Positions 6,162-54,006 of a DNA stretch of 64,000 nucleotides are shown here, in pieces. Made by a program: the position numbers and the translations under genes. The first letter of the stretch is position 1. Each line of letters begins with the position of its first letter. The notes beneath the pieces are model-generated. The model worked only from the letters and a program-made list of their open reading frames with translations, made no database searches and had not been told where the DNA came from. Location of the stretch: contig CAZNOF010000006.1 in the NCBI GenBank assembly GCA_964574595.1, forward strand, positions 21,532 through 85,531, in the 5' to 3' direction. The DNA is from an uncultured Pseudomonadales bacterium. GTDB lineage: Bacteria > Patescibacteriota > Microgenomatia > UBA1400 > PJMF01.

Positions 6162-7588
6162 TAGCCGATACTTCCTTCCATCTCATGATCAATCAATCTA
6201 TTCATCTCAACAGCGTACTCTAAAGGTAGTTTTTTTACTAATCCATCAATAAATCCATTCACGATCATTTTTCTAGACATCTCTTCAGTTAGGCCGCGAC
6301 TCATCAAATAAAAGAGCTGCTCTTCACCAATTTTAGAGACTGTAGCTTCGTGTTGAACTTCTACAATATTATTGAAAATTTTATCAACCGGATATGTGTC
6401 AGAACGTGATTCTGGATCCAGCAACAACGCATCACAAATCACAGTATTTTTACTGTGGTGAGCAAGTGGACCAACGTTGACCATTCCACGATAACTAGTG
6501 CGTCCACCATTTTTACTAATTGATTTTGAGATAATTGTTGAACTGGTATAAGGTGCTAAATGAGTAGCTTTTGAACCAGTATCCTGGTGCTGTCCCGCAC
6601 CAGCGAGTGCCATAGAAAGAGTCTCCCCTTTGGCACCTTTGCCAGCCAAAATAAAACCTGGATACTTCATGGTTAATTTACTTCCCATGTTAAAGTCGGT
6701 CCAAATCATCTCAGCTTCTGCGTCTACCCATGCGCGCTTTGTCACTAAGTTATAAATATTTTTGTACCAATTTTGAACGGTGGTGTACTGACAGCGACCA
6801 CCTTTTTTAACAAAGATTTCTACCACTGCGGAGTGCAAAGAAGACGAGGAGAATGAAGGTGCTGTACAGCCTTCCACATAATGAACTTTAGCGCCTTCAT
6901 CCACGATGATTAACGTTCGTTCAAATTGACCCGCATTGGCTGCATTAATTCTAAAGTAAGTCTGCAACGGCATCTTCACTTCCACACCCTTCGGCACATA
7001 GACGAATGAACCACCTGACCAAACTGCCGTATTTAAGGCTGAGAATTTGTTGTCGCCACTAGGAATTAACTTACCAAAATACTCTTTAATTAATTCTGGA
7101 TACTGCTTTAAACCTTCATCCATCGATAAGAAAACGACACCATCTTTTGCCCAAATATTTTTAAGCGAGCCGTAAACTACTTCAGAGTCGTACTGCATTT
7201 TGACACCGGCTAAGTAATCTCGTTCTGCTGCTGGAATACCTAATTTATCAAAAGTAGCTTGAATTTCTGGCGGCACGTCAGCCCATGTTTTGGTAGCATC
7301 GGCAGGGCGTAAATAGTAATGAATCGCGTCGTAGTTAATGTCACTTAAGTTGCCACCCCACATGGGAGTTGGTTTTGATTCAAATTGTTGTAAAGCAATC
7401 AACCGTAGCTTCAACATCCATTCCGGTTCCTGTTTAATTGCAGAAATCTCTCTAACCACACCTTCATTTAAACCTGGCTTGATAATATGTTGATAGTTAG
7501 TCGTTGGATACGAGAATCCCTGCTCATAAGAGTCATCTTTGAGACTTGGGTCTAGCTCCTCAGTGTGTTTAGCGGCGAATCGAGACAT
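6161..7588 (-). CDS. sufB: Fe-S cluster assembly protein SufB
   Basis: 475 aa. Highly conserved SufB sequence throughout, with C-terminal GF(I/V)..V motif. Confidence 0.9.
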   Translation of the reverse strand: MSRFAAKHTEELDPSLKDDSYEQGFSYPTTNYQHIIKPGLNEGVVREISAIKQEPEWMLKLRLIALQQFESKPTPMWGGNLSDINYDAIHYYLRPADATKTWADVPPEIQATFDKLGIPAAERDYLAGVKMQYDSEVVYGSLKNIWAKDGVVFLSMDEGLKQYPELIKEYFGKLIPSGDNKFSALNTAVWSGGSFVYVPKGVEVKMPLQTYFRINAANAGQFERTLIIVDEGAKVHYVEGCTAPSFSSSSLHSAVVEIFVKKGGRCQYTTVQNWYKNIYNLVTKRAWVDAEAEMIWTDFNMGSKLTMKYPGFILAGKGAKGETLSMALAGAGQHQDTGSKATHLAPYTSSTIISKSISKNGGRTSYRGMVNVGPLAHHSKNTVICDALLLDPESRSDTYPVDKIFNNIVEVQHEATVSKIGEEQLFYLMSRGLTEEMSRKMIVNGFIDGLVKKLPLEYAVEMNRLIDHEMEGSIG

Positions 7589-20027: not shown

Positions 20028-21473
20028 TTAGTCCTCTTCCACTTTGTAGGCAATCAAGTGATCGCCAATTTGGAATCTAACATTGCGTTTGAAAGTCATA
20101 CCGAACTCACTCTTGGTTCGAGCGATATCGATTTGATCTTTGCCATGCATCATTGATTTAATTTCTGGGTCTAATAAAATTTCATCACCACGTTTTAAGT
20201 GCAATTTATCAGTCTTTTTCACTTCACCAGTCACAACTCTACAACCGGCAATGACTTCACCCTTCATCTCAAAGATCTGTAAGATCTCGATGTCGCCCAG
20301 CACCACTTCATCAATGGTTGGCTCGAGAAGTTTCAACATCTGTTTTTGTAAGTCTTCGAGTAATTTGTAGATGACGTCGTATTGCTTAATCTTCACTTTA
20401 GCGTTTTTAGCCTTCTCTTCAACCTTTTTTGGAAGTTTAGTGTGGAAAACCAAAATCATTGAACCAGTGGTTTCTGCAAAATCGATATCATCTTCAGTCA
20501 CTTCACCCACACCAGATCGTAAGACCACAGTACTTTCCTCATCAATGTTTTGCATGATGGCTTCTAAAGTACCTTGGACATCTGCTTTAATCATCAATTT
20601 TAATTTTGGATGCTCGTTGAAAAGAGCGGTGTAGTCAGTTGGAACGCGAACTTCAGGCTCAGCGACCACTTCTTCTACGGCGGCTTCTTTGCCAACTTCT
20701 TGAATAATCGCACCTACGGCTGGAACATCAGTGAATCCTACAATTTCAGCTGGACTACCTGGTGTCACAGTGATAAGTGGTTTGCGATTTTCATCAACTA
20801 ATTGGCGAACTCGACCTAAAGCACCATCAGCCACTACGTCTTGGCGAACTCGCAAAGTACCTTGTTGGACAACTACAGTCGCAACTGCGCCACGTTTTTG
20901 ATCTTTGGTAGATTCAATGACTACTGCTTTCAAATCTGCATCTGGATCTGCTTGGTAGTTGTTCAACTCAGCCATCGTTAAGATTAGCTCGAGCAATTGA
21001 TCAACACCTTTACCTGTCTTGGCAGACAGCTCAACCACGTCAATTTCACCGCCGTAGCCATGAACTAAGACATCTTGCTCAGCAAGTTGGGCCTTTGCCA
21101 TATCTGGATAGACATTTGGTAAGTCGATTTTGTTAATAGCCACCACGTAAGGCACACCAGCTTCTTTAATATGACGAATTGACTCAATGGTTTGAGGTTT
21201 GACGCCATCATTAGCAGCCACAACTAAGACCACAATATCGGTCACCTTGGCACCACGAGCACGCATTTTGTTAAATGCTGAGTGGCCAGGAGTATCGATA
21301 AAAGTAATCTTCTTTTTCTCAAATTCAATCTGGTAGGCACCAATATGCTGCGTAATTCCACCCGCTTCACGAGCCGTGACGTGGGTTTTACGGATGTAAT
21401 CCAAGAGGGACGTCTTCCCGTGGTCGACGTGACCCATGATGGTTACAATTGGTGGTCTTGGTGTCAATGCCAT
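20028..21473 (-). CDS. infB: translation initiation factor IF-2, minimal form (G domain + domain II + C-terminal domains; no N-terminal extension)
   Basis: [12 protein letters not shown] (G1), DTPGH (G3), NKID (G4). 481 aa versus 700-900 aa typical for bacterial IF-2. Confidence 0.85.
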
Positions 21474-45088: not shown

Positions 45089-45979
45089 ATGCCTAGATTC
45101 GAATTACCTAGTATCACTGAGTCAATCAAACTTACTGCTTGGGATAAACCTGCCAAAAGCAGTAGAGTTGAAAAGATTGGCAACGCGATTGCACTCATTC
45201 ATGAAGGAATTCCACTTGAGGAGTCGTACATCAAAACCCTTTTTGGGGACAATCCTCCACCTGACTTAGATGGCACATTTGACTCCATCAATTTAGCAAC
45301 TGACGAGATTGCCAGAGATCCCAATGATGATCTTTCTATTAGAGTTGCCTTTGAAAATATGTACAAGCAAAAACAAGTCGAAATTGCTGCAGATATACAA
45401 AGAGTTAAGGAAGCAAATGAGGCTCTCCCATTAATGCAGCGCATTAGAAATCGCTTAACTGGGCGAAACGCCATTCGTACCTGGAATACTGGACCCAATT
45501 TTGACAAACGATCCAAGAAACAACAATTGGCTGATTTTATTGAATCCGAGAAAAGAGAGCGACGCCATCATTTGGCCTTAGGAACTCGATCTGATTACTT
45601 TCGACAAGGTTATCAAGAAGTTGAAATTGAGTTACGAGCCAAAATGATTCTGGAGGATGACCCAGCAATCTTCAAGCAATTTTTTGACACAATCAAGCTG
45701 ACACCCCAAAAACCTTTTCTAATCATCTATGGACATGGCGGTGACCGAGAGGGTCAACCACAAAAGTGGCAAATTGGCGAGTCCTTCACTCAAAACTATA
45801 CCGATTTAACTGAAGTTTTTAAAAAAATGCAGGCAGAAACTGGTAAATACTCGGCTATTCTGCTGGTTTCTTGCAATGGCAATAAATTAACACCACCAGA
45901 TGCAGGTGGCTCCCCCGTTTTTTACGCTGAGGGCCTCGCAGGATTGCGAGTACCAGGGAAAGTAGCGAAAGTTTTATAA
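45089..45979 (+). CDS. hypothetical protein
   Basis: 296-aa ORF. No motif. Confidence 0.4.
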   Translation: MPRFELPSITESIKLTAWDKPAKSSRVEKIGNAIALIHEGIPLEESYIKTLFGDNPPPDLDGTFDSINLATDEIARDPNDDLSIRVAFENMYKQKQVEIAADIQRVKEANEALPLMQRIRNRLTGRNAIRTWNTGPNFDKRSKKQQLADFIESEKRERRHHLALGTRSDYFRQGYQEVEIELRAKMILEDDPAIFKQFFDTIKLTPQKPFLIIYGHGGDREGQPQKWQIGESFTQNYTDLTEVFKKMQAETGKYSAILLVSCNGNKLTPPDAGGSPVFYAEGLAGLRVPGKVAKVL

Positions 45980-46873
45980 TTCTTCAATACGAACACTTGG
46001 GTTCATATCTGGAGTATCAATCAACTTGAGGTATTTCTCAGTGGTGGTAATTCGCTTGTGACCTACTAATTGAGAGACGTACACCAAAGGTGTACCGGCT
46101 TTCAATTGCTCGATAATAAAGGTGTGGCGTAAGTCGTTAACTTTACCATCTTTAATACCAGCTAAGCGGAAGTAGCGATCAATAGCGGTTCTGATGTTAC
46201 GAACTAAGAAAGGTCGGCAAGTTTTGGTTAAAAACAAGGTTTTTTCTCGAGCTCGTGGACGAATTCTCATGTACTCGGTTAAAGCGTTCTTAGCAGCTGT
46301 ATTCAAAGGAACTTTACGTGCTTCTCGAGAATTTTGAGCCTGAATGAAGATCACGTTATGATCCATATCAACCTCATTTACTTGGAGAGAAGAAAGTTCA
46401 CTAATACGCATTCCTGTCTGGAGTAAGATCTCGACGATACCGTAAATACGGACATCACTTCGACAAGCATCTCGCAAAGCGCGATACTCTAATTTTGACA
46501 ATACTCGAGGAGGAACTTGATCATATTTTGGATGAGTAATCACATCTGCTGGATTCTCAGTTAAAGCACCTTGAGCAATTAAGTAACGGAAAAAGGACTT
46601 AATTGAGTTGATTTTTCGAGAGATAGATTTACCGGTGTAGCGTTGCTTCTTGAGTAATTCTTTAAATTCCTCGATATCGTCAGAAACGATTTCATCAACT
46701 TTGGTTTTGTTTCGCTCAGCTAAAAACTGGAGCACTTGCTCCACATCTTTACTATAAGCGATAACCGTAGCGTGTGCTCGGCCTGCCGTGACTAAATATT
46801 GAGTGAACTGCTCGCGCATTTCAGATAATGAGTCTAAATTCATATTCTTGTCTTCTAGCTTGTTACAGGGCAA
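45974..46873 (-). CDS. xerD: tyrosine site-specific recombinase, XerC/XerD-like
   Basis: N-terminal SAM-like domain. Catalytic R...HxLRHT...HKRITTTEKY (R-H-R-Y tetrad context). 299 aa. Confidence 0.8.
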   Translation of the reverse strand: MPCNKLEDKNMNLDSLSEMREQFTQYLVTAGRAHATVIAYSKDVEQVLQFLAERNKTKVDEIVSDDIEEFKELLKKQRYTGKSISRKINSIKSFFRYLIAQGALTENPADVITHPKYDQVPPRVLSKLEYRALRDACRSDVRIYGIVEILLQTGMRISELSSLQVNEVDMDHNVIFIQAQNSREARKVPLNTAAKNALTEYMRIRPRAREKTLFLTKTCRPFLVRNIRTAIDRYFRLAGIKDGKVNDLRHTFIIEQLKAGTPLVYVSQLVGHKRITTTEKYLKLIDTPDMNPSVRIEEL

Positions 46874-47004
46874 AATGTACTCAAGCGATTCTTATTAACT
46901 AGTAGTTATAATCTCGTTCTACAAGAGCTTATAATATCACAGAAAGGGTTTTTACGCAATTCTCGCGCTTAGTATACCATCCAGTCACAGTTTTCGGTAT
47001 AACT

Positions 47005-47313
47005 TTGGTTGTAATTGCGGTTTGCGTGTCGTTATATTTCAACGCTCGAGAAATTAAAAGTTCTTCCGATTTAGTGACTCATCTACGATCCCAGGTGGAC
47101 CAGCGGCAGCAAGAGTTCGAAAGAGTGAAAAAAGAGGCAAATAGAGCGCAAACTTCTCTTAATCAGGAAAGTATTATTCGCGATGAGTTACTCATGCAAA
47201 AACCGGGTGAATATATCGTCCAAATGCCTGATTTACCAGAACCTATAATCAATCAGAAGGTGACACAAAAACAGCTTTCACCGTGGCAAGAGTGGCAGTT
47301 ACTTTTAAACTAA
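47005..47313 (+). CDS. septum-formation initiator family protein (FtsB/DivIC-like), putative
   Basis: N-terminal TM helix, coiled-coil segment, then IRDELLMQKPGEYIV resembling the FtsB/DivIC ARExLGxxkPGE motif. Confidence 0.5.
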   Translation: MVVIAVCVSLYFNAREIKSSSDLVTHLRSQVDQRQQEFERVKKEANRAQTSLNQESIIRDELLMQKPGEYIVQMPDLPEPIINQKVTQKQLSPWQEWQLLLN

Positions 47314-47332: not shown

Positions 47333-48274
47333 CTACCCACCGAGAGCCCAGAAATAAAATCCGGTCATTGCTCCGCTAGCTTTTACCCAAAACTCCAAGA
47401 GTGTCCATTGTAAGAGAGCTGGCGTATAGCCATGCAGTCGTACTCCAGCAGATAGAAAATGCCCAAAACTTGTCCAAAACTGCTGCCAACTTTGGCGAAT
47501 GACTGGCCTAGCAAATCGATACCCCTGCAAAACAAAGTACAAATAACAGGCCATCTCACCTCTTTGGTAATAGAGATACTGCAGGTCATACTCTCTGGGC
47601 GTTAACCACCGATTGTGAAATACCACCATATCTGGAGAATAAAAGTACTGCTGCCACCTGGTTAAACCCCGCAAAGCAATCTCCCCATCTTCACAGTTTT
47701 GGCCAACCGAGCCTGGACCTAGCCACTCCTTAAAGTTTCCCACCTGCTGAAAGAACCGTTTCCGAAACGCCATATTATTACCAACCCCAATCATTTTGCC
47801 ATGATTTCCAGGCTTGGTAATACGATGTGATTGAGGATGTTGCACATTTTTAAAACTGGAGGGACAGCGAAATCCATGATGCTTTTCAGGCTGAAATGGC
47901 CTTGTTTGGCCAAATACACCGGCCACATCTGGATATTGAGTAAAAATACGAACGATTTCTTTCAACCAGTCCTGATCTGGGAGGCAGTCATCATCGGTGA
48001 ATGCAATTAGGGGCGCTTTTGCCATCGAAATCCCCCGATTCAAGGCTTTACTCTTGTTTTTCTCTGGCACTAGCACATATTGAAACGAGCTAAAAGCAGC
48101 TTGAAATTTGGCCTTTTGAGGCGCTGTGAGGCTATTTTTGCCCTGAACTACCACAATGACCTCTATCGGCACATCCCGACTTTTCCTCAAGGCTTCAAGG
48201 CAAGCGGTCAGGCTCTGGGGACGATTTGAGCTGGCAATGACTACCGTTATGATGGGATCTCGTGAATTAGGCAT
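47333..48274 (-). CDS. family 2 glycosyltransferase
   Basis: TVVIASSNRP...IEVIVVVQG N-terminal GT-A pattern and FTDDDCLPDQDW (DxD). 313 aa. Confidence 0.65.
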   Translation of the reverse strand: MPNSRDPIITVVIASSNRPQSLTACLEALRKSRDVPIEVIVVVQGKNSLTAPQKAKFQAAFSSFQYVLVPEKNKSKALNRGISMAKAPLIAFTDDDCLPDQDWLKEIVRIFTQYPDVAGVFGQTRPFQPEKHHGFRCPSSFKNVQHPQSHRITKPGNHGKMIGVGNNMAFRKRFFQQVGNFKEWLGPGSVGQNCEDGEIALRGLTRWQQYFYSPDMVVFHNRWLTPREYDLQYLYYQRGEMACYLYFVLQGYRFARPVIRQSWQQFWTSFGHFLSAGVRLHGYTPALLQWTLLEFWVKASGAMTGFYFWALGG

Positions 48275-48331
48275 ATTCTTCTTGGCGATTGCTTATAGCA
48301 TACCAGACGTGGTAAACTAACTCTCTATCCG

Positions 48332-48400
48332 CGCGGGATAGTGTACGGTGCACGTGAGGCTCATAATCTCGCAGGTCGGGTTCGACTCCCGATCCCGCAA
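48332..48400 (+). tRNA. tRNA with CAU anticodon (Met / initiator-like; 69 nt, CCA not encoded)
   Basis: Hand-folded. Acceptor CGCGGGA/UCCCGCA with a C1·A72 mismatch and A73 (E. coli tRNA-fMet has CGCGGGG/CCCCGCA+A). U8 A9. 3-bp D stem GUG/CAC with a GG-containing loop. Anticodon loop CUCAUAA. Perfect T arm UCGGG-UUCGACU-CCCGA. Followed by a weak hairpin + U7. The anticodon stem has two G·U pairs and Y11:R24, which is atypical for initiators. Confidence 0.5.
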
Positions 48401-48459
48401 CATAAGAAACAAGAAAATCGCCCCAGAGGCGGTTTTTTTGTACCTCTGCCTAAGATTTT

Positions 48460-51018
48460 TTGTTTTATACTATAATCCAGATTATGCCATTAGAAATTTT
48501 TATTCCTGGTGCTTCTGAGCATCAAGCACCTGAATCGAAACCCCTAGCGAGTGGTCTCGTCATCAATGCTCGAGGCGAAACGCTTGATTCAACACAAAAA
48601 ACCCAATTATTTATTACAAATGAAAAAGGTACAATTAAAGAAGTTGCCCCACTCGGACAAGAAAGACCCACTATGAACGGCGAGTACTCTCCTACCTCTC
48701 ATATTCCACAAGATGAACCAGAAGACATGAGAAGAACACTTGTAGAAACAGAAGCGGTGAAAACAGGACGAGCCTATAAATCAGATACGATCCTCGAAGC
48801 GGTAGCGAACAATGAAATACCCAAACTCTCGCACGGGCTGTACGATTTGGTTTTTGAGTTGGGATCAACAAATATTGACTGGCGAAAAGATGTAGAACCC
48901 ATCTTAACTGCAGCAGGCATCAATACTCTCAATCCAGATATGGGCGCGAACTGGGATCCTAAGCGTGACACGCTAGCTGAAGCATGGGGTTTGGGAAACT
49001 CTGCCGAGCTGGCGATGTATATTGAAAATGCTGCTGACATTAAGGATGGAAGTTTAGGTTCTTTAGTAGAAATCGGTATGTCCGTCTACTCAGCGGTTAT
49101 TAGTGGGCAGCATGTGGATATTCACTTTGACGAACACTTTGAGGAAACCTTAGAAGACCCCGGCGCCATCGCACAATTTGAAGCGTTAAAGACACAACTA
49201 GCAGCAATTCAAAAAAAATACGGTCACTTAGTCTCGGTTGAGTACAATAGTACTCGTCAAAACTATGCTGAGAAAATTCAATTGGCCATGGAGAGACAAC
49301 GGAATCCTGAAACCGCCAACAAGCCAATTACCAAAGAAAAATTGCAAGAATTTGCCGAAAAAAGAAGACAGAGATTGGCAAAAAAGAAACGCAAAGTGGT
49401 TTACGGCGGATCTTCTGCGCCTTTCGATAAATCACTGCAACTCTCCTTTGACACTGAGCAAGACTTAATTCAACAAATTTTTGGTGGCGAAGCAGCTATG
49501 GATGTACTTAACAGAGAGCCACTCAAATCTGCCTGGGATCGTGCCTACGAAGAAGGTATTAGTAAAGATGAGCAGATCAAACGTATGAACTTCTTATTCC
49601 AAATGGAAGCTGGTCCCAAAAGCCAAGCCGACATTTTACTCTGGATCATTCAAGCTAGAGCCGAGTCGATGGCTGCCATAACGGAAACACCGTTCCTGCT
49701 CCTAAATGCTTTAGAAGAAGGGCAACAAGTAGGCGTCCTCTCTGAAGACTTAGATGCTGACTTTTATGTGCAACACCTGTTTGGCAGAAGAGCACCAGAT
49801 CTTGAAAAAACGACTGGACCATTGCCAATTTACGACCAGCTCCGAGATAAACGAGAGACAATTACCTTTAAATCCATCAAAAATGAACCTGAACTCAAAA
49901 AGACTCGGCTCTTCTCACGTGCTGATAATGTCCGTCGCACTCGAGCCATTTCCTCACAGCAGTTACTAGGTATCAATGAAAAGGCCAGAAAAATTGCGGG
50001 TGACGAGGAAATTGAGTTGTTTATCTTTAGTCGAGATTTGACTGATTTTGCACAGAAGTGCCAAATTATTGCCGACAATGAAACCTTTGAGGGTCGTGAA
50101 GTGTTCTACAACAACTTAAGTAAGTTTAACGATAACATGGAGGCCATGGTGGCTGAGCATGCTGGAGATAAAGAACATGCCGTAGAGATTGTTTGGAATG
50201 CGATCAAAGCTGCTGTAGAGCTCAACCCATTTGCGCCATCATTAGAGAAGCACTTGAATGAAGTCAAGGCCACTTGTGCCACTTTGAAAGAATTGGTTGC
50301 GGCTCATCCGGACGCTGATGGCAATCCATACTTAACTCCAGAAGAAATGAAGTTAATGGTTGATTATGTGGCTCCTCTCCACGACATCTTAAAACTCCTC
50401 GGTGCTCCAAATGTCCAAGCTATCCCTGACCATGAAGTCTTTGCTGGATACATCGTAAACACTTACTTTGAGAAACTTGGATTTACTCCACAAGAAGTAG
50501 CATTCATTGCCGGCGTGATTGGCAATCATGAGAACATCTTTAAAGAGAAAGAGCGTGATAAGTACTCTTCATCAGAGAAATCAGTGGACCGAGGAGTTGC
50601 TCTCTTCTTTATCGCAGATGGCTTAACTGGCGTTGTGTCTGAGGAAAATGGGGTCATAAAACTCGATCCAGCTCAACTTGATGAACGTTTCGGCAAGCTC
50701 TATGTCAATCACATGGATCCAGAGACTCGAAAAGTTGCGCTGCCACGACCAGAATGGGGCTTCTCAACCGTCAAAGATTATCTGGCTACGTTTGATACGC
50801 TGGAAGCAAAATACGGCTTCAAATTTGATCCAGGTGCTCGAAAGATGTTGATTGATTCTGCTGTTAAAGCAATTGATACCACGCTCGGGAACAATGGCAA
50901 ACGAAAAGAAGAGGCATCCAACAAAAAACCACTCATGACTGATCCGGAACTGATTAATTTGATGAAAACACGATCGGCACTCAAGAAGATTGGCCGCGAG
51001 CTAGCACCAGCAGCCTAG
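48460..51018 (+). CDS. large multidomain hypothetical protein with C-terminal HD-domain-like motifs (alternative start ATG 48484)
   Basis: 852 aa. C-terminal third contains H...PLHDILKLLG...FFIADG, resembling the H / HD / D signature of HD phosphohydrolases. N-terminal regions unassigned. Confidence 0.4.
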   Translation: MFYTIIQIMPLEIFIPGASEHQAPESKPLASGLVINARGETLDSTQKTQLFITNEKGTIKEVAPLGQERPTMNGEYSPTSHIPQDEPEDMRRTLVETEAVKTGRAYKSDTILEAVANNEIPKLSHGLYDLVFELGSTNIDWRKDVEPILTAAGINTLNPDMGANWDPKRDTLAEAWGLGNSAELAMYIENAADIKDGSLGSLVEIGMSVYSAVISGQHVDIHFDEHFEETLEDPGAIAQFEALKTQLAAIQKKYGHLVSVEYNSTRQNYAEKIQLAMERQRNPETANKPITKEKLQEFAEKRRQRLAKKKRKVVYGGSSAPFDKSLQLSFDTEQDLIQQIFGGEAAMDVLNREPLKSAWDRAYEEGISKDEQIKRMNFLFQMEAGPKSQADILLWIIQARAESMAAITETPFLLLNALEEGQQVGVLSEDLDADFYVQHLFGRRAPDLEKTTGPLPIYDQLRDKRETITFKSIKNEPELKKTRLFSRADNVRRTRAISSQQLLGINEKARKIAGDEEIELFIFSRDLTDFAQKCQIIADNETFEGREVFYNNLSKFNDNMEAMVAEHAGDKEHAVEIVWNAIKAAVELNPFAPSLEKHLNEVKATCATLKELVAAHPDADGNPYLTPEEMKLMVDYVAPLHDILKLLGAPNVQAIPDHEVFAGYIVNTYFEKLGFTPQEVAFIAGVIGNHENIFKEKERDKYSSSEKSVDRGVALFFIADGLTGVVSEENGVIKLDPAQLDERFGKLYVNHMDPETRKVALPRPEWGFSTVKDYLATFDTLEAKYGFKFDPGARKMLIDSAVKAIDTTLGNNGKRKEEASNKKPLMTDPELINLMKTRSALKKIGRELAPAA

Positions 51019-51914
51019 TTTTTACGAAGCTTATAAACGAGTTTTTGATGAACAGGAATAGCTTCAACTGAGAAGCCAAGCTGCTTAAAGCAAGCCATCA
51101 GTTCGGCGTACTGGGCCAAACAATATTCATACCAATTAGTCAATGATTTGGCTTGTTCAAAAACACTTCTGTAGTGAACGACCAGCAGGGTTCCTTCTGG
51201 TTTCATTAATGAAGTGATGTGTCTAGCCAGAAACATCAACTCTGGCGATTTGCCAGACATCAGTTCTTGGGTAGCTGTTTTAAATAGCTCAGCATCTCGA
51301 TATAACTCTTGAATGTGCTGGCCCGACTTTTCCGCCCAAGTATTTAACAAATAATCATCAAGAAAATGATTGGTCGTTACAAGATCGTATTGTGGGTCAT
51401 TTGGCAGAACGAGGAGTTCAGAAACCAGTTTTTTGACAGCGAATTGAGGGTGAAAAAAGCGTAAAACTGTCTCTAATTTCTCCAATGAGGCTAGATCCGT
51501 ATCCAACAACGCAACTTCCCCTGTAAAGTTATGACGAGCCAATGCAATCTCAACTTTGGGAGCCCAGCCAGGCAGCAGATCAATCACGTTCATTTCCGAA
51601 GTCAATTTCACTGATTTCAGTAATTCATACCAGAGGTCTGAAATGTGATGGAAGCCTTCTAAATAACGCATGAACTCAGCGGTTCTTCTGCCTACATCGT
51701 CATGTTGCCTGCCAATGAATTCTGTCTCCGAGTACAGCCCCTTCTCGGCATACTCGACCATAAACTGTAAGTCAAAAGCCACGTTTTCTTGCTCCAAAGG
51801 CGTCAACGTAGAACTCAGTTTTTGCAGGCGGTCTAAGTAAGAAGATATTTGAGAAGAGGTGGATGAGGTGCTCATGAGGAATTGCCGTATAATATCATCT
51901 GGAACACTCGCCAT
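51015..51914 (-). CDS. hypothetical protein with weak Rossmann/SAM-methyltransferase-like motifs
   Basis: VIDLLPGWAP (motif I-like), VALLDTD (motif II-like), DLVTTNHFLDDY (motif IV-like). Start uncertain because the annotated start overlaps the divergent gene. Confidence 0.35.
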   Translation of the reverse strand: MASVPDDIIRQFLMSTSSTSSQISSYLDRLQKLSSTLTPLEQENVAFDLQFMVEYAEKGLYSETEFIGRQHDDVGRRTAEFMRYLEGFHHISDLWYELLKSVKLTSEMNVIDLLPGWAPKVEIALARHNFTGEVALLDTDLASLEKLETVLRFFHPQFAVKKLVSELLVLPNDPQYDLVTTNHFLDDYLLNTWAEKSGQHIQELYRDAELFKTATQELMSGKSPELMFLARHITSLMKPEGTLLVVHYRSVFEQAKSLTNWYEYCLAQYAELMACFKQLGFSVEAIPVHQKLVYKLRKN

Positions 51915-53040
51915 GCAACTTGATCAATCCACCACTTCTGCCGAAGCAATTCAGTTGAGAAAAAAACTGACCAGAATTGCGCGTGGCTTACGACATACAA
52001 CACTGCCTGAAGTTCTTGACTATTCCCTGCCTCAATCCGTCTCATCAGATACGATTCGTTTTAAAGACACCTTCATCTCTCGAAAGCGGATTGTGCTTTT
52101 AACCGGAAGTTGTAGTGTTGCCAGTTGTACGATGTGTCATTTGCCCAATGAAGCACTTTGGAAAGATCGGCCACAGCCCACACAAAAAAACTTGCTGGAT
52201 CAGTTTTCGGCCGCGTTCGCAGAAGACAAGATCAATAATTACGACATGATCACGATTTATAATAACGGCAATTTTTTTTCCGATCGCGAAGTTCCACCTG
52301 AGGTGCGCCTCAAGATTGCTGATCAAATTAATACCGCTGGCTGCAAGTACTTGCTCGTCGAGTCTCTTCCCCAGTTCATCACCTCAACAGCACTTCAAGA
52401 AATGAGTACGGCACTTGGAAATACCAAGCTCGTCCTATCGATTGGTCTCCAATCTGCCAATGACTATGTGCGTGAAGTGGCGGTGAACTCAACTTGTTCA
52501 AAACAACAATTTGAACGAGTGGTCAAGGAAGCCACCGAACTTGGTCACGAGATAATGACCTTCTTAATGCTCAAACCACCTTTTTTAACGGAACAAGAAG
52601 GCATTGATGACATGATTCAAAGCTTAGAGTACCTGACGTCTTTAGGACTCACAGAAACTGCCATTTGCCCAACTCAAGTTTCTGACTTTACGATTGCAGA
52701 TGTCCTTTTCACTGAGAAATCATTTACTCCACCGTGGTTATGGTCGGCGATAGAAGTTTTAAAGATTGCTCAACAAAAAAACCTGACTTTGCCACGCTTT
52801 GCCACATCCGTCTTGAGCTCTTCACATCTTGAGAATTTAAAGTTGGCGTATAATTGTGATCAATGTTCTGATCGATTCATCCATCTTTTAGAAGAATACA
52901 ATAACTCAAGAAATATTGATGCTCTCGTCAATTTTTCATGTTCATGCAAAGAAGAATATGATCGGCAACTTGCCCAAGCAGTCACCTTAGAAAGCTTAGA
53001 ATCGCGCATTACGGCGTTCACTCAAGCCCATTTTGTCTAA
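51859..53040 (+). CDS. radical-SAM-like protein with non-canonical Cx4Cx2C cluster and C-terminal extra Cys motifs (start uncertain; Met at 51916 possible)
   Basis: LLTGSCSVASCTMCHLP (C-x4-C-x2-C). TIM-barrel-like length. C-terminal CDQC...SCSC. Confidence 0.4.
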   Translation: MDEVLMRNCRIISSGTLAMQLDQSTTSAEAIQLRKKLTRIARGLRHTTLPEVLDYSLPQSVSSDTIRFKDTFISRKRIVLLTGSCSVASCTMCHLPNEALWKDRPQPTQKNLLDQFSAAFAEDKINNYDMITIYNNGNFFSDREVPPEVRLKIADQINTAGCKYLLVESLPQFITSTALQEMSTALGNTKLVLSIGLQSANDYVREVAVNSTCSKQQFERVVKEATELGHEIMTFLMLKPPFLTEQEGIDDMIQSLEYLTSLGLTETAICPTQVSDFTIADVLFTEKSFTPPWLWSAIEVLKIAQQKNLTLPRFATSVLSSSHLENLKLAYNCDQCSDRFIHLLEEYNNSRNIDALVNFSCSCKEEYDRQLAQAVTLESLESRITAFTQAHFV

Positions 53041-53043
53041 TAT

Positions 53044-54006
53044 ATGAATATCTCCTCTCCCACTTTTCAAGCCCTTACTAATCCCGTGCTTTTGACAGAA
53101 CTGCAAAACTACCGAAAGAGGCGCGGCTTTGAGGCAGAGAAAGTTGTACAACAAAAACAAGAACTACTGGCAAAATACTGCACGGATTGGCAGATTGACA
53201 CCTTAATTGTGCCAGTTAGCGGCGGAGTTGACTCTGCGGTGGTGGCAGCCTTAACGGCGGTTGTAACACAGAAAAATCAAACGCTCAAAAAAGTGATCCT
53301 GCTTTTTATTCCTCAGTTCAATGAGGGCAGTTCGAACCAAGCCGATGCTCAAAAAAAAGTCGAACTTCTGGCAGACAAACTTCAAGTTGAGCTCATTACC
53401 TTTGATATTTCAAACTTGCACCAAACTGTGATCGAAGAACTCAATAAAAAATCTCTCAGCAGTGGCTGGCTAAAAGGCCAAGTGACGACCTATTTGAGAA
53501 CGCCCGTTTGGTATAGTTTAGCGGCTCAACTAGCCGAGGCAGGCCATCGGGCAATCGTCTCCGGCACTATTAATTTTGATGAAGGCAGCTATCTGGGCTA
53601 CTTCTCTAAAAGCTCTGACGCCATGACTGACATTCAGCTGATTTCCGATTTACATAAGTCGGAAGTCAAAAAAATTGCTGAGTACTTTCGGATTCCTGAA
53701 GAGATTAGAAACGCGATTCCCAACGGGGACATGTATGACAATAGAAATGACGAAGCTGTTTTTGGAACGAGTTATGATTTTGTGGAACTGTATAGTTGGT
53801 TTCTTCAGCTACCTGAAGCGGAGCAAGCACGGAAATTGAAAGGTTGGCCGGCGGCAGCTCAAAAAGAGTTCGAGCGGATGAGAGCAAATCTAGAACGACT
53901 TCATGAATATAATCGGCACAAATATACTGTCGCCCCACAAGGACTGCACTTCACGGTATTTGAGGCAACTATTCCCGGTGGCTGGACATTAGTAAAATAT
54001 GTTTGA
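53044..54006 (+). CDS. nadE: NadE-like PP-loop ATP pyrophosphatase (NH3-dependent NAD+ synthetase family)
   Basis: PP-loop VPVSGGVDSAVVAAL. C-terminal ISDLHKSEVKKIAEYFRIPEEIRNAIPNGDMYDNRNDEAVFGTSYDFVELY matches the NadE L.K.EV..LA..LG.P..I..K.PSA.L..Q.DE...G..Y..LD pattern. Confidence 0.6.
   Translation: MNISSPTFQALTNPVLLTELQNYRKRRGFEAEKVVQQKQELLAKYCTDWQIDTLIVPVSGGVDSAVVAALTAVVTQKNQTLKKVILLFIPQFNEGSSNQADAQKKVELLADKLQVELITFDISNLHQTVIEELNKKSLSSGWLKGQVTTYLRTPVWYSLAAQLAEAGHRAIVSGTINFDEGSYLGYFSKSSDAMTDIQLISDLHKSEVKKIAEYFRIPEEIRNAIPNGDMYDNRNDEAVFGTSYDFVELYSWFLQLPEAEQARKLKGWPAAAQKEFERMRANLERLHEYNRHKYTVAPQGLHFTVFEATIPGGWTLVKYV

Follow-up and report, generated by a model that had tools for sequence, protein, structure and literature searches.

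A compact tRNA(CAU) gene on a Patescibacteria chromosome, very probably encoding the initiator tRNA of its lineage

Bacteria normally have three tRNAs with a CAU anticodon: the initiator, the elongator tRNA-Met and tRNA-Ile2. The 64,000-nucleotide stretch of DNA considered here (64 kb; hereafter 'the window') encodes a single tRNA, which carries this anticodon, is short, and joins an initiator-like acceptor end to a D arm and an anticodon stem that depart from those of canonical initiators. An earlier reading of the letters alone (the sequence-only reading) left three explanations side by side: a tRNA-fMet with relaxed identity elements, as in a reduced lineage; a tRNA-Ile2 or an elongator tRNA-Met with an odd acceptor; or a fold misplaced by a few nucleotides. 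It also hinted at the attachment site of a genomic island. Here, we ask which tRNA the gene encodes and whether its compact shape reflects decay or a conserved design.

The gene itself is genuine. ARAGORN reports a tRNA-Met with anticodon CAT at 48332-48401 (+) as the sole tRNA of the 64-kb window, and Rfam family RF00005 aligns to 48332-48400 (+) over model positions 1-71 of 71 with a score of 41.8 bits (E=1.8e-5; gathering score 29), which is the only match to any Rfam family in the whole 64-kb window. The two programs agree with the sequence-only reading on the position, the anticodon, the length (69 nt up to the discriminator) and the lack of any other tRNA in 64 kb, and they give the same fold, which disposes of the suspicion that the fold was off by a few nucleotides. 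The 3' end of the gene reads ...GCAA followed directly by CAT, i.e. CCA is not templated.

The 5' strand of the acceptor stem, CGCGGGA (48332-48338, +), faces the 3' strand UCCCGCA, which is followed by the discriminator A73 (together 48393-48400, +; A72 at 48399, A73 at 48400). The stem has G2-C71, C3-G70 and G4-C69, and C1 (48332) stands opposite A72 without a Watson-Crick pair, the Rfam alignment marking 1:72 as non-standard; the initiator-like acceptor end described earlier is thus confirmed from both sequence and alignment. After U8 and A9 comes a reduced D arm of 13 nt (48341-48353, +; Rfam alignment), in which the stem GUGU/GCAC closes a 5-nt loop, ACGGU. Its pairs are G10-C25, U11-A24 and G12-C23 plus a U13.G22 wobble, so that the 3-bp D stem of the earlier account stands by the ARAGORN count and becomes one of 4 bp by that of Rfam, which includes the wobble. 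The anticodon arm (48354-48372, +; ARAGORN and Rfam) has the loop CUCAUAA, as previously read, with the anticodon CAU at 48362-48364. Its stem consists of U27.G43, G28-C42, A29-U41, G30-C40 and G31.U39, that is, two G-C pairs and one A-U pair with a G.U pair at either end; the earlier description was right about the flanking G.U pairs and the lack of three consecutive G-C pairs, and wrong in counting only one G-C pair of five. Among the three pairs that matter in initiators (29:41, 30:40 and 31:39), only 30:40 is G-C. G26 forms a Watson-Crick G-C pair at 26:44, the variable region reads CAGG (a variable loop of 3-4 nt), and the T arm is UCGGG / UUCGACU / CCCGA (48376-48392, +; Rfam). G18, G19 and the T-loop UUCGA are kept, and none of the four stems is broken. 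Taken singly, the sequence folds only modestly better than its shuffled versions (z=-2.05).

The gene content around the tRNA points to its host. The window encodes a short IF2 (481 aa), NusA, PNPase, DnaK, FtsH and SufB, and the named homologues of the adjacent glycosyltransferase (GT2) gene come from the Patescibacteria group and Candidatus Levybacteria; on this gene set and these homologues, we assign the window to a Patescibacteria chromosome. Many of its open reading frames (ORFs) have no family match (20 ORFs were scanned against family libraries).

To look at relatives, species-representative genomes were scanned with a degenerate DNA pattern for the tRNA, comprising 5' CGCGGG, U8, a short D-arm region, RGGCUCAUAAYCY and a T-loop motif. 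Conservation of CGCGGG, of R29/Y41, of Y39 and of the short D arm is partly a matter of construction, these being fixed by the pattern, which left free the sequence of the D arm (its length being fixed), the 3' acceptor strand and the discriminator. The scan returned at least 119 matching loci, at least 116 of which carry the same tRNA of 69-70 nt. Three of the 119 listed (L003, L021 and L065) were excluded as canonical-type initiators of other phyla; masked Ns in the D arm were all that let L003 and L065 match, and the D arm of L021 is shortened. The records of the at least 116 loci are labelled Patescibacteria group, Paceibacterota/Pacebacteria, Microgenomates, Levybacteria, Woesebacteria, Roizmanbacteria and Parcubacteria, and about half of the 116 listed are labelled 'uncultured Pseudomonadales/Gammaproteobacteria'. 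The latter labels are probably wrong, because many of these loci share the recombinase (Xer) gene discussed below and some of the isolate names contain 'PATE'. Two loci so labelled, L020 and L113, hold the nearest Xer matches among the matches listed. Genes of the compact type are routinely auto-annotated in metagenome-assembled genomes (MAGs).

The 116 listed loci reduce to 64 distinct sequences, which formed the covariation alignment. In it, 99.5-99.6% of the cells of the cloverleaf are standard pairs, and changes on both sides occur in eight pairs (nine counting 26:44), including compensatory changes in three of the five pairs of the T arm; the covariation score was reached by 0 of 500 shuffles, and slid controls all drop to 23-57% paired. 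Two sites that the pattern left unconstrained, A72 and A73, are invariant (64/64). U11:A24, noted earlier as elongator-type and evident in the fold of the window tRNA, likewise recurs in all 64 homologues, and U13.G22 and most of the D loop, whose sequence was unconstrained, are invariant or nearly so. G2-C71, C3-G70 and G4-C69 do not vary in the family, their 5' strand lying within the CGCGGG that the pattern required. In the anticodon stem, 29:41 is A-U in 59 homologues and G-C in 5, and 31:39 is G.U in 63 and G-C in one (the pattern permitted both). At 26:44, 58 homologues have G-C and the other 6 have A-U; with a pair always formed there, the anticodon helix is effectively one of 6 bp and the variable loop one of 3 nt. 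Almost all of the relatives listed also lack a templated CCA. Since the short form is conserved and its pairing is maintained by compensatory change across relatives, we read the compact shape as a selected, conserved design, the norm of the lineage and not a product of decay. The same comparison shows the short variable loop, the 5-nt D loop, U11:A24 and the Watson-Crick pair at 26:44 to be conserved traits of the lineage.

Which of the three CAU tRNAs this design represents was addressed by comparison with Escherichia coli metY (initiator), metT (elongator tRNA-Met) and ileX (tRNA-Ile2), which were taken by coordinates and aligned to the window tRNA (blastn of the window tRNA matched nothing in E. 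coli genomes). The window tRNA is 62% identical to metY, 49% to metT and 51% to ileX, and shares with them 13, 5 and 5 of 15 acceptor positions, respectively; four Patescibacteria elongator-type CAU tRNAs are 49-51% identical to the window tRNA and share 6-9 of the 15. The window tRNA has the marks expected of an initiator in its CAU anticodon, C1xA72, G2-C71, C3-G70, G4-C69 and A73. Methionyl-tRNA formyltransferase (Fmt) recognises its substrate chiefly by the 1x72 mismatch in combination with 2:71 and 3:70 (PMC6265465). Two other marks of the class are absent: positions 29:41, 30:40 and 31:39 read A-U/G-C/G.U where the class has three G:C pairs in a row, and U11:A24 takes the place of A11:U24. 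Three G-C pairs at 29-31:39-41 are a highly conserved rule of initiators and not an absolute one, and work from the RajBhandary laboratory reportedly identified A11:U24 as an initiator mark and a minor Fmt determinant in E. coli. The A-U/G-C/G.U stem makes the tRNA a less canonical member of the class without excluding initiator function.

The relatives bear on the same question through their other tRNAs. Besides the short tRNA, the 116 listed loci have between them 91 tRNA(CAU) genes, 73-78 nt long, in which the D loop is normal and 1:72 is paired. In about 90 of the 116, such a separate elongator-type tRNA(CAU) lies near the short tRNA, mostly 40-250 nt away and divergently transcribed. The short tRNA is thus not the elongator of the lineage. 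Neighbouring tRNAs in these loci have normal D loops, the initiator alone being compact, and no second tRNA with C1xA72 was found in the 64-kb window or in about 0.9 Mb (8-kb loci) of the Patescibacteria loci listed.

Taken together, the ARAGORN and Rfam results, conservation in the family and covariation lead us to regard the gene at 48332-48400 (+) as very probably encoding the tRNA-fMet-type initiator of its host, a Patescibacteria/CPR bacterium, in the lineage's compact form. Of the readings offered earlier, that of a tRNA-fMet with relaxed identity elements in a reduced lineage is the one upheld, by the conservation, the metY-like acceptor and the separate elongator of relatives. Judging from those relatives and from the 64 kb at hand, it would also be the sole initiator of the source genome. 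Several observations weigh against the initiator reading: the loss of the A11:U24 mark to U11:A24, the single G-C pair of three in the anticodon stem, the lack of an elongator tRNA(CAU) within the 64-kb window (unlike most of the relatives listed), and the untemplated CCA, which is templated in 74.7% of bacterial initiator genes (PMC5143459).

If the gene is the initiator, its working can be sketched by analogy with established initiator biology, on which the proposed charging, modification, P-site use and exclusive role in initiation are modelled. The tRNA would be made from a single-gene transcription unit ending at a hairpin-U7 terminator, its 5' end would be matured and, CCA being untemplated, CCA would be added post-transcriptionally. 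Methionyl-tRNA synthetase (MetRS) would charge it through the CAU anticodon and A73. C1xA72 with G2-C71 and C3-G70 would make the charged tRNA a substrate for methionyl-tRNA formyltransferase, a prediction drawn solely from the conserved acceptor determinants, and the C1xA72 mismatch would keep it from EF-Tu and peptidyl-tRNA hydrolase. IF2, which the window encodes, would bring it to the ribosomal P site, where the purine:pyrimidine pairs 29:41/30:40/31:39 (A-U/G-C/G.U) may take the place of the usual three G-C pairs.

The transcription unit can be traced in outline. A gap of 57 nt separates the tRNA from the divergent GT2 gene. Within it, TTGCTT, an 18-nt spacer and TGgTAAACT (an extended -10) at 48289-48318 (+) form a possible promoter, a weak reading taken from the letters and from the position in the gap. 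A consensus promoter scan reported no sigma-70 site of acceptable quality immediately upstream of the gene; it passed over the candidate because the -35 hexamer matches at three of six positions. On the 3' side, a hairpin followed by U7 occupies 48409-48441, with a 14-bp stem in which an A-tract pairs with the U-tract (-17.6 kcal/mol; z=-6.06; 0 of 200 shuffles as good). A consensus scan gives only its minus-strand version; from the modelled fold, the element looks like a bidirectional intrinsic terminator that ends the tRNA transcription unit. With this hairpin-U7 on one side and the 57-nt gap to the divergent GT2 gene on the other, the tRNA looks like a self-contained transcription unit.

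Four other explanations have to be weighed against the formylated compact initiator. The one that survives best, and which we nonetheless think improbable, is that the tRNA initiates without formylation, its dependence on Fmt having been lost or relaxed, as would be mirrored in U11:A24 and the compact D arm. The replacement of A11:U24 by U11:A24 in 64 of 64 distinct homologues fits this idea. So does a tblastn search with E. coli Fmt and Def, which gave no hit in the window or in the related loci listed (about 0.9 Mb in all), but that search spanned less than 1% of each genome and had low power. Against it stand the major Fmt determinants (the 1x72 mismatch, G2-C71 and C3-G70; PMC6265465), whose invariance in the family suggests selection.

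Less probable still is an elongator tRNA-Met with an unusual acceptor end, or one tRNA-Met serving both purposes. Mammalian mitochondria do manage with a single dual-purpose tRNA-Met, and this explanation can draw on U11:A24 as the elongator-type arrangement, on an anticodon stem without three G-C pairs and on the lack of a second tRNA(CAU) in the 64-kb window. It founders on C1xA72, which is invariant in at least 116 genomes (C1 being set by the pattern), on the acceptor, which shares 13 of 15 positions with metY, the E. coli initiator, and 5 of 15 with the elongator tRNA-Met of E. coli, and on the adjoining elongator-type tRNA(CAU), with paired 1:72 and a normal D arm, of about 90 of the 116 listed relatives. 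The common D arm of metT, ileX and the Patescibacteria neighbour tRNA is UAGCUCAGUUGGUUAGAGCA, with small variations, and the reduced D arm of the window tRNA is unlike it. These three resemble the window tRNA in CAU, A73 and the general cloverleaf and are 49-51% identical to it; their 1:72 is paired, as G-C in metT and ileX and mostly as G.U in the Patescibacteria neighbour.

A tRNA-Ile2, in which TilS would convert C34 to lysidine for the reading of AUA, is a shade less probable again. It would account for CAU in the loop CUCAUAA, which E. coli ileX also has. The acceptor stem and D arm are nevertheless unlike those of ileX (5 of 15 acceptor positions, 51% overall), and a mismatched 1:72 is no feature of an elongator. 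Some of the relatives' loci hold a tRNA-Ile(UAU), which offers an alternative route to AUA. TilS was not identified among the 20 window ORFs scanned, the sole PP-loop ATPase (53044-54006) matching NAD synthase. The earlier suggestion of a tRNA-Ile2 or a Met elongator with an odd acceptor is accordingly set aside, on C1xA72 and on the acceptor match of 5 of 15 to metT and to ileX.

The attachment-site hint concerned a tyrosine recombinase placed at about 1.5 kb, and such a gene does lie at 45974-46873 (-), 1,459 nt from the tRNA. It has Pfam Phage_integrase and SAM-like domains, and in NCBIfam it scores highest against XerD/XerC/XerA, with about 158 bits, which falls short of the equivalog cut-offs. 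Orthologues found by tblastn in 66 of the 116 listed loci have a median amino-acid identity of 67% (up to 80%) and lie a median of 850 nt from the short tRNA. Between recombinase and tRNA, a small ORF at 47005-47313 (+) resembles DivIC weakly (Pfam DivIC, 24 bits, below cut-off), and homologues of it occur near the tRNA in 24 of the 116 listed loci (tblastn). From this synteny, we take Xer-DivIC-tRNA to be a conserved neighbourhood and the Xer-like recombinase to be a conserved core gene, not an island integrase. Compared with the relatives listed, the GT2 gene that separates DivIC from the tRNA is peculiar to the window; its best homologue (P0003) belongs to a glycosyltransferase cluster that is unrelated and includes no tRNA. 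The 3' end of the tRNA (24 nt, up to 3 mismatches) is not repeated anywhere else in the 64-kb window, and the one 12-mer of the tRNA region to be found again in the window is part of the 3' flank and not of the tRNA. GC content (0.38-0.47; 0.38-0.45 in the region of the tRNA) is flat, with no step beside the gene. A genomic island or att site is rejected on these grounds (no 3'-end repeat, flat GC, a conserved syntenic Xer), and the hint given earlier falls with it; a phage origin of the compact tRNA is rejected as well, the pattern having no match in viral contigs. The least probable explanation of all, a degenerate copy (an att remnant or pseudogene) left by a mobile element with the recombinase nearby, could appeal to the short length (69 nt), the moderate Rfam score (41.8 bits), the recombinase 1.46 kb off and the window-specific GT2 gene, but it is contradicted by the lack of a 3'-end repeat, the flat GC content, a syntenic recombinase 67-80% identical in 66 of the 116 listed loci, a short form conserved with compensatory substitutions, and a pattern unmatched in viral contigs.

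For the source genome, the compact initiator would be something ordinary, a housekeeping gene that is neither a pseudogene nor an island attachment site. As a class, it would represent a bacterial initiator of variant but conserved structure, from which two textbook marks have been dropped: at least 116 species of a very large and little-studied radiation appear to keep the formylation and acceptor marks, to do without the three G-C pairs and A11:U24, and to have shrunk the D loop of the initiator alone. A broader interpretation, which we put forward tentatively and would not yet favour, is that the Patescibacteria, or at least their Microgenomates and Paceibacteria-type groups, miniaturised the initiator tRNA and no other, in a lineage-wide re-tuning for Fmt, IF3 and the P site that co-evolved with a reduced translation apparatus. 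If that is true, the known exceptions to the rule of three G-C pairs, a few mycoplasmas and alpha-proteobacteria, would be joined by a large bacterial radiation. The family would offer a natural, conserved test case of which initiator features are indispensable and of how IF3 and P-site checking adapt, and annotators would do well to treat a short, low-scoring tRNA(CAU) in CPR genomes as a real initiator. The searchable literature, whose coverage is incomplete, held no description of a CPR/Patescibacteria initiator tRNA of such structure; U11:A24, a 5-nt D loop and a Watson-Crick 26:44 pair were found described for no bacterial initiator, and nothing useful was found on formyltransferase or deformylase in CPR bacteria.

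Among known systems, the canonical initiator is the closest. E. coli metY shares with the window tRNA the CUCAUAA loop, C1xA72, A73, G2-C71, C3-G70 and G4-C69 as well as G26, U27, G30-C40 and G31, and the sole difference between the two acceptors is a compensatory change at 7:66. The window tRNA differs from metY in length (69 versus 74 nt to the discriminator) and in its D arm (13 nt with a 5-nt loop versus 17 nt); from the canonical initiator in U11:A24 for A11:U24 and in A29-U41 and G31.U39 for G-C; and from the metY-type initiator in its Watson-Crick 26:44 pair, its 3-4-nt variable loop and its lack of a templated CCA. D-loop-reduced mitochondrial tRNAs likewise combine a recognisable cloverleaf with a D loop and a variable region that are shortened, and to that extent the window tRNA resembles them. 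Unlike them, it keeps G18, G19, UUCGA and four stems, and in its lineage the initiator alone is compact.

The anticodon stem has its nearest counterpart in the au/GC/gu initiators, a natural variant of some mycoplasmas and alpha-proteobacteria in which three purine:pyrimidine pairs are kept (PMC5389676). Rhizobial ribosomes have apparently co-evolved with an initiator whose first pair is A-U (PMC5389676). Like the window tRNA, the au/GC/gu variants have A-U and G.U as first and third pair and retain the middle G-C (PMC5389676). In its passages on these pairs, PMC5389676 names only mycoplasmas and alpha-proteobacteria as bearers of au/GC/gu, whereas here the arrangement is found in at least 116 Patescibacteria-type genomes; and to the anticodon-stem pairs with which those passages deal, the window tRNA adds a reduced D arm and U11:A24.

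Of the 116 Patescibacteria loci among the matches listed, about 90 have, besides the compact initiator tRNA, a second tRNA gene of normal length with a CAU anticodon, and across these loci it usually lies 40–250 nt away in divergent orientation (e.g. at 7180–7254 of L009 and 4393–4467 of L030, both 8-kb loci from related genomes); none is present within the 64-kb window. This normal-length tRNA(CAU) is probably the elongator tRNA-Met of these genomes. Among the 91 such genes in the loci listed, 83 have a G1·U72 wobble and 85 the anticodon loop UUCAUAA with U32, and the 31:39 pair is non-Watson–Crick (A·A in 75/91 and A·C in 13/91). These are conserved peculiarities of the normal-length tRNA itself. 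G1·U72 is also found in the elongator tRNA-Met of Firmicutes.

In two relatives among the loci listed, the gene for the compact initiator encodes the complete CCA end (L083, 3497–3569; L097, 4543–4615); these may represent intermediate or ancestral states. The elongator-type gene of L083 is on the opposite strand, about 80 nt from the initiator; that of L097 follows in tandem, 1 nt downstream, and L097 is the only one of the sequences listed in which the compact initiator has G31–C39.

The genes around the initiator form a conserved neighbourhood, comprising a Xer-like recombinase, a DivIC-like open reading frame (ORF) and the tRNA, that is shared by the window (recombinase and DivIC-like ORF at 45974–47313), loci L020 and L113, and 64 others among those listed. 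Relative to the recombinase, the tRNA occurs in two arrangements, window-like in 21 of the loci listed and inverted in 44. The glycosyltransferase (GT2) gene at 47333–48274 is an insertion specific to the window when compared with related loci. Directly downstream of the tRNA is an 852-aa ORF (48460–51018, + strand), followed by a 299-aa ORF (51015–51914, − strand); neither has a significant match in family searches (for the 852-aa ORF there is only a weak 22.7-bit match to Nuc_deoxyri_tr2) or a homologue among the 116 related loci listed. An ORF at 51859–53040 (+ strand), adjoining NadE-like and NMN-adenylyltransferase-like genes, matches RaSEA, the radical SAM protein of archaeosine biosynthesis (TIGR01210), at 201 bits, slightly below the 212-bit cut-off; such a match is unexpected for a bacterium.

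Among the matches listed for L004–L121, about half of the metagenome-assembled genomes with the Patescibacteria-type tRNA have record titles that read ‘uncultured Pseudomonadales’ or ‘Gammaproteobacteria’; in the loci listed, the Xer gene is shared by many of the genomes so titled. A few other records bear the names Clostridia, Limisphaerales, Methylomirabilota or Limnocylindrales in their titles. Records with such non-Patescibacteria titles are probably mislabelled or mis-binned.

A tRNA-Ile with the anticodon UAU, uncommon in bacteria, was tallied by ARAGORN in seven of the loci L004–L121 among the matches listed, which suggests that some Patescibacteria decode AUA without lysidine. The window also encodes a short initiation factor IF2 of 481 aa (20028–21473, − strand), covering positions 83–580 of the 587-position IF-2 model, that may be relevant to the handling of the unusual initiator; compared with longer IF2 proteins, it is without their N-terminal extension.
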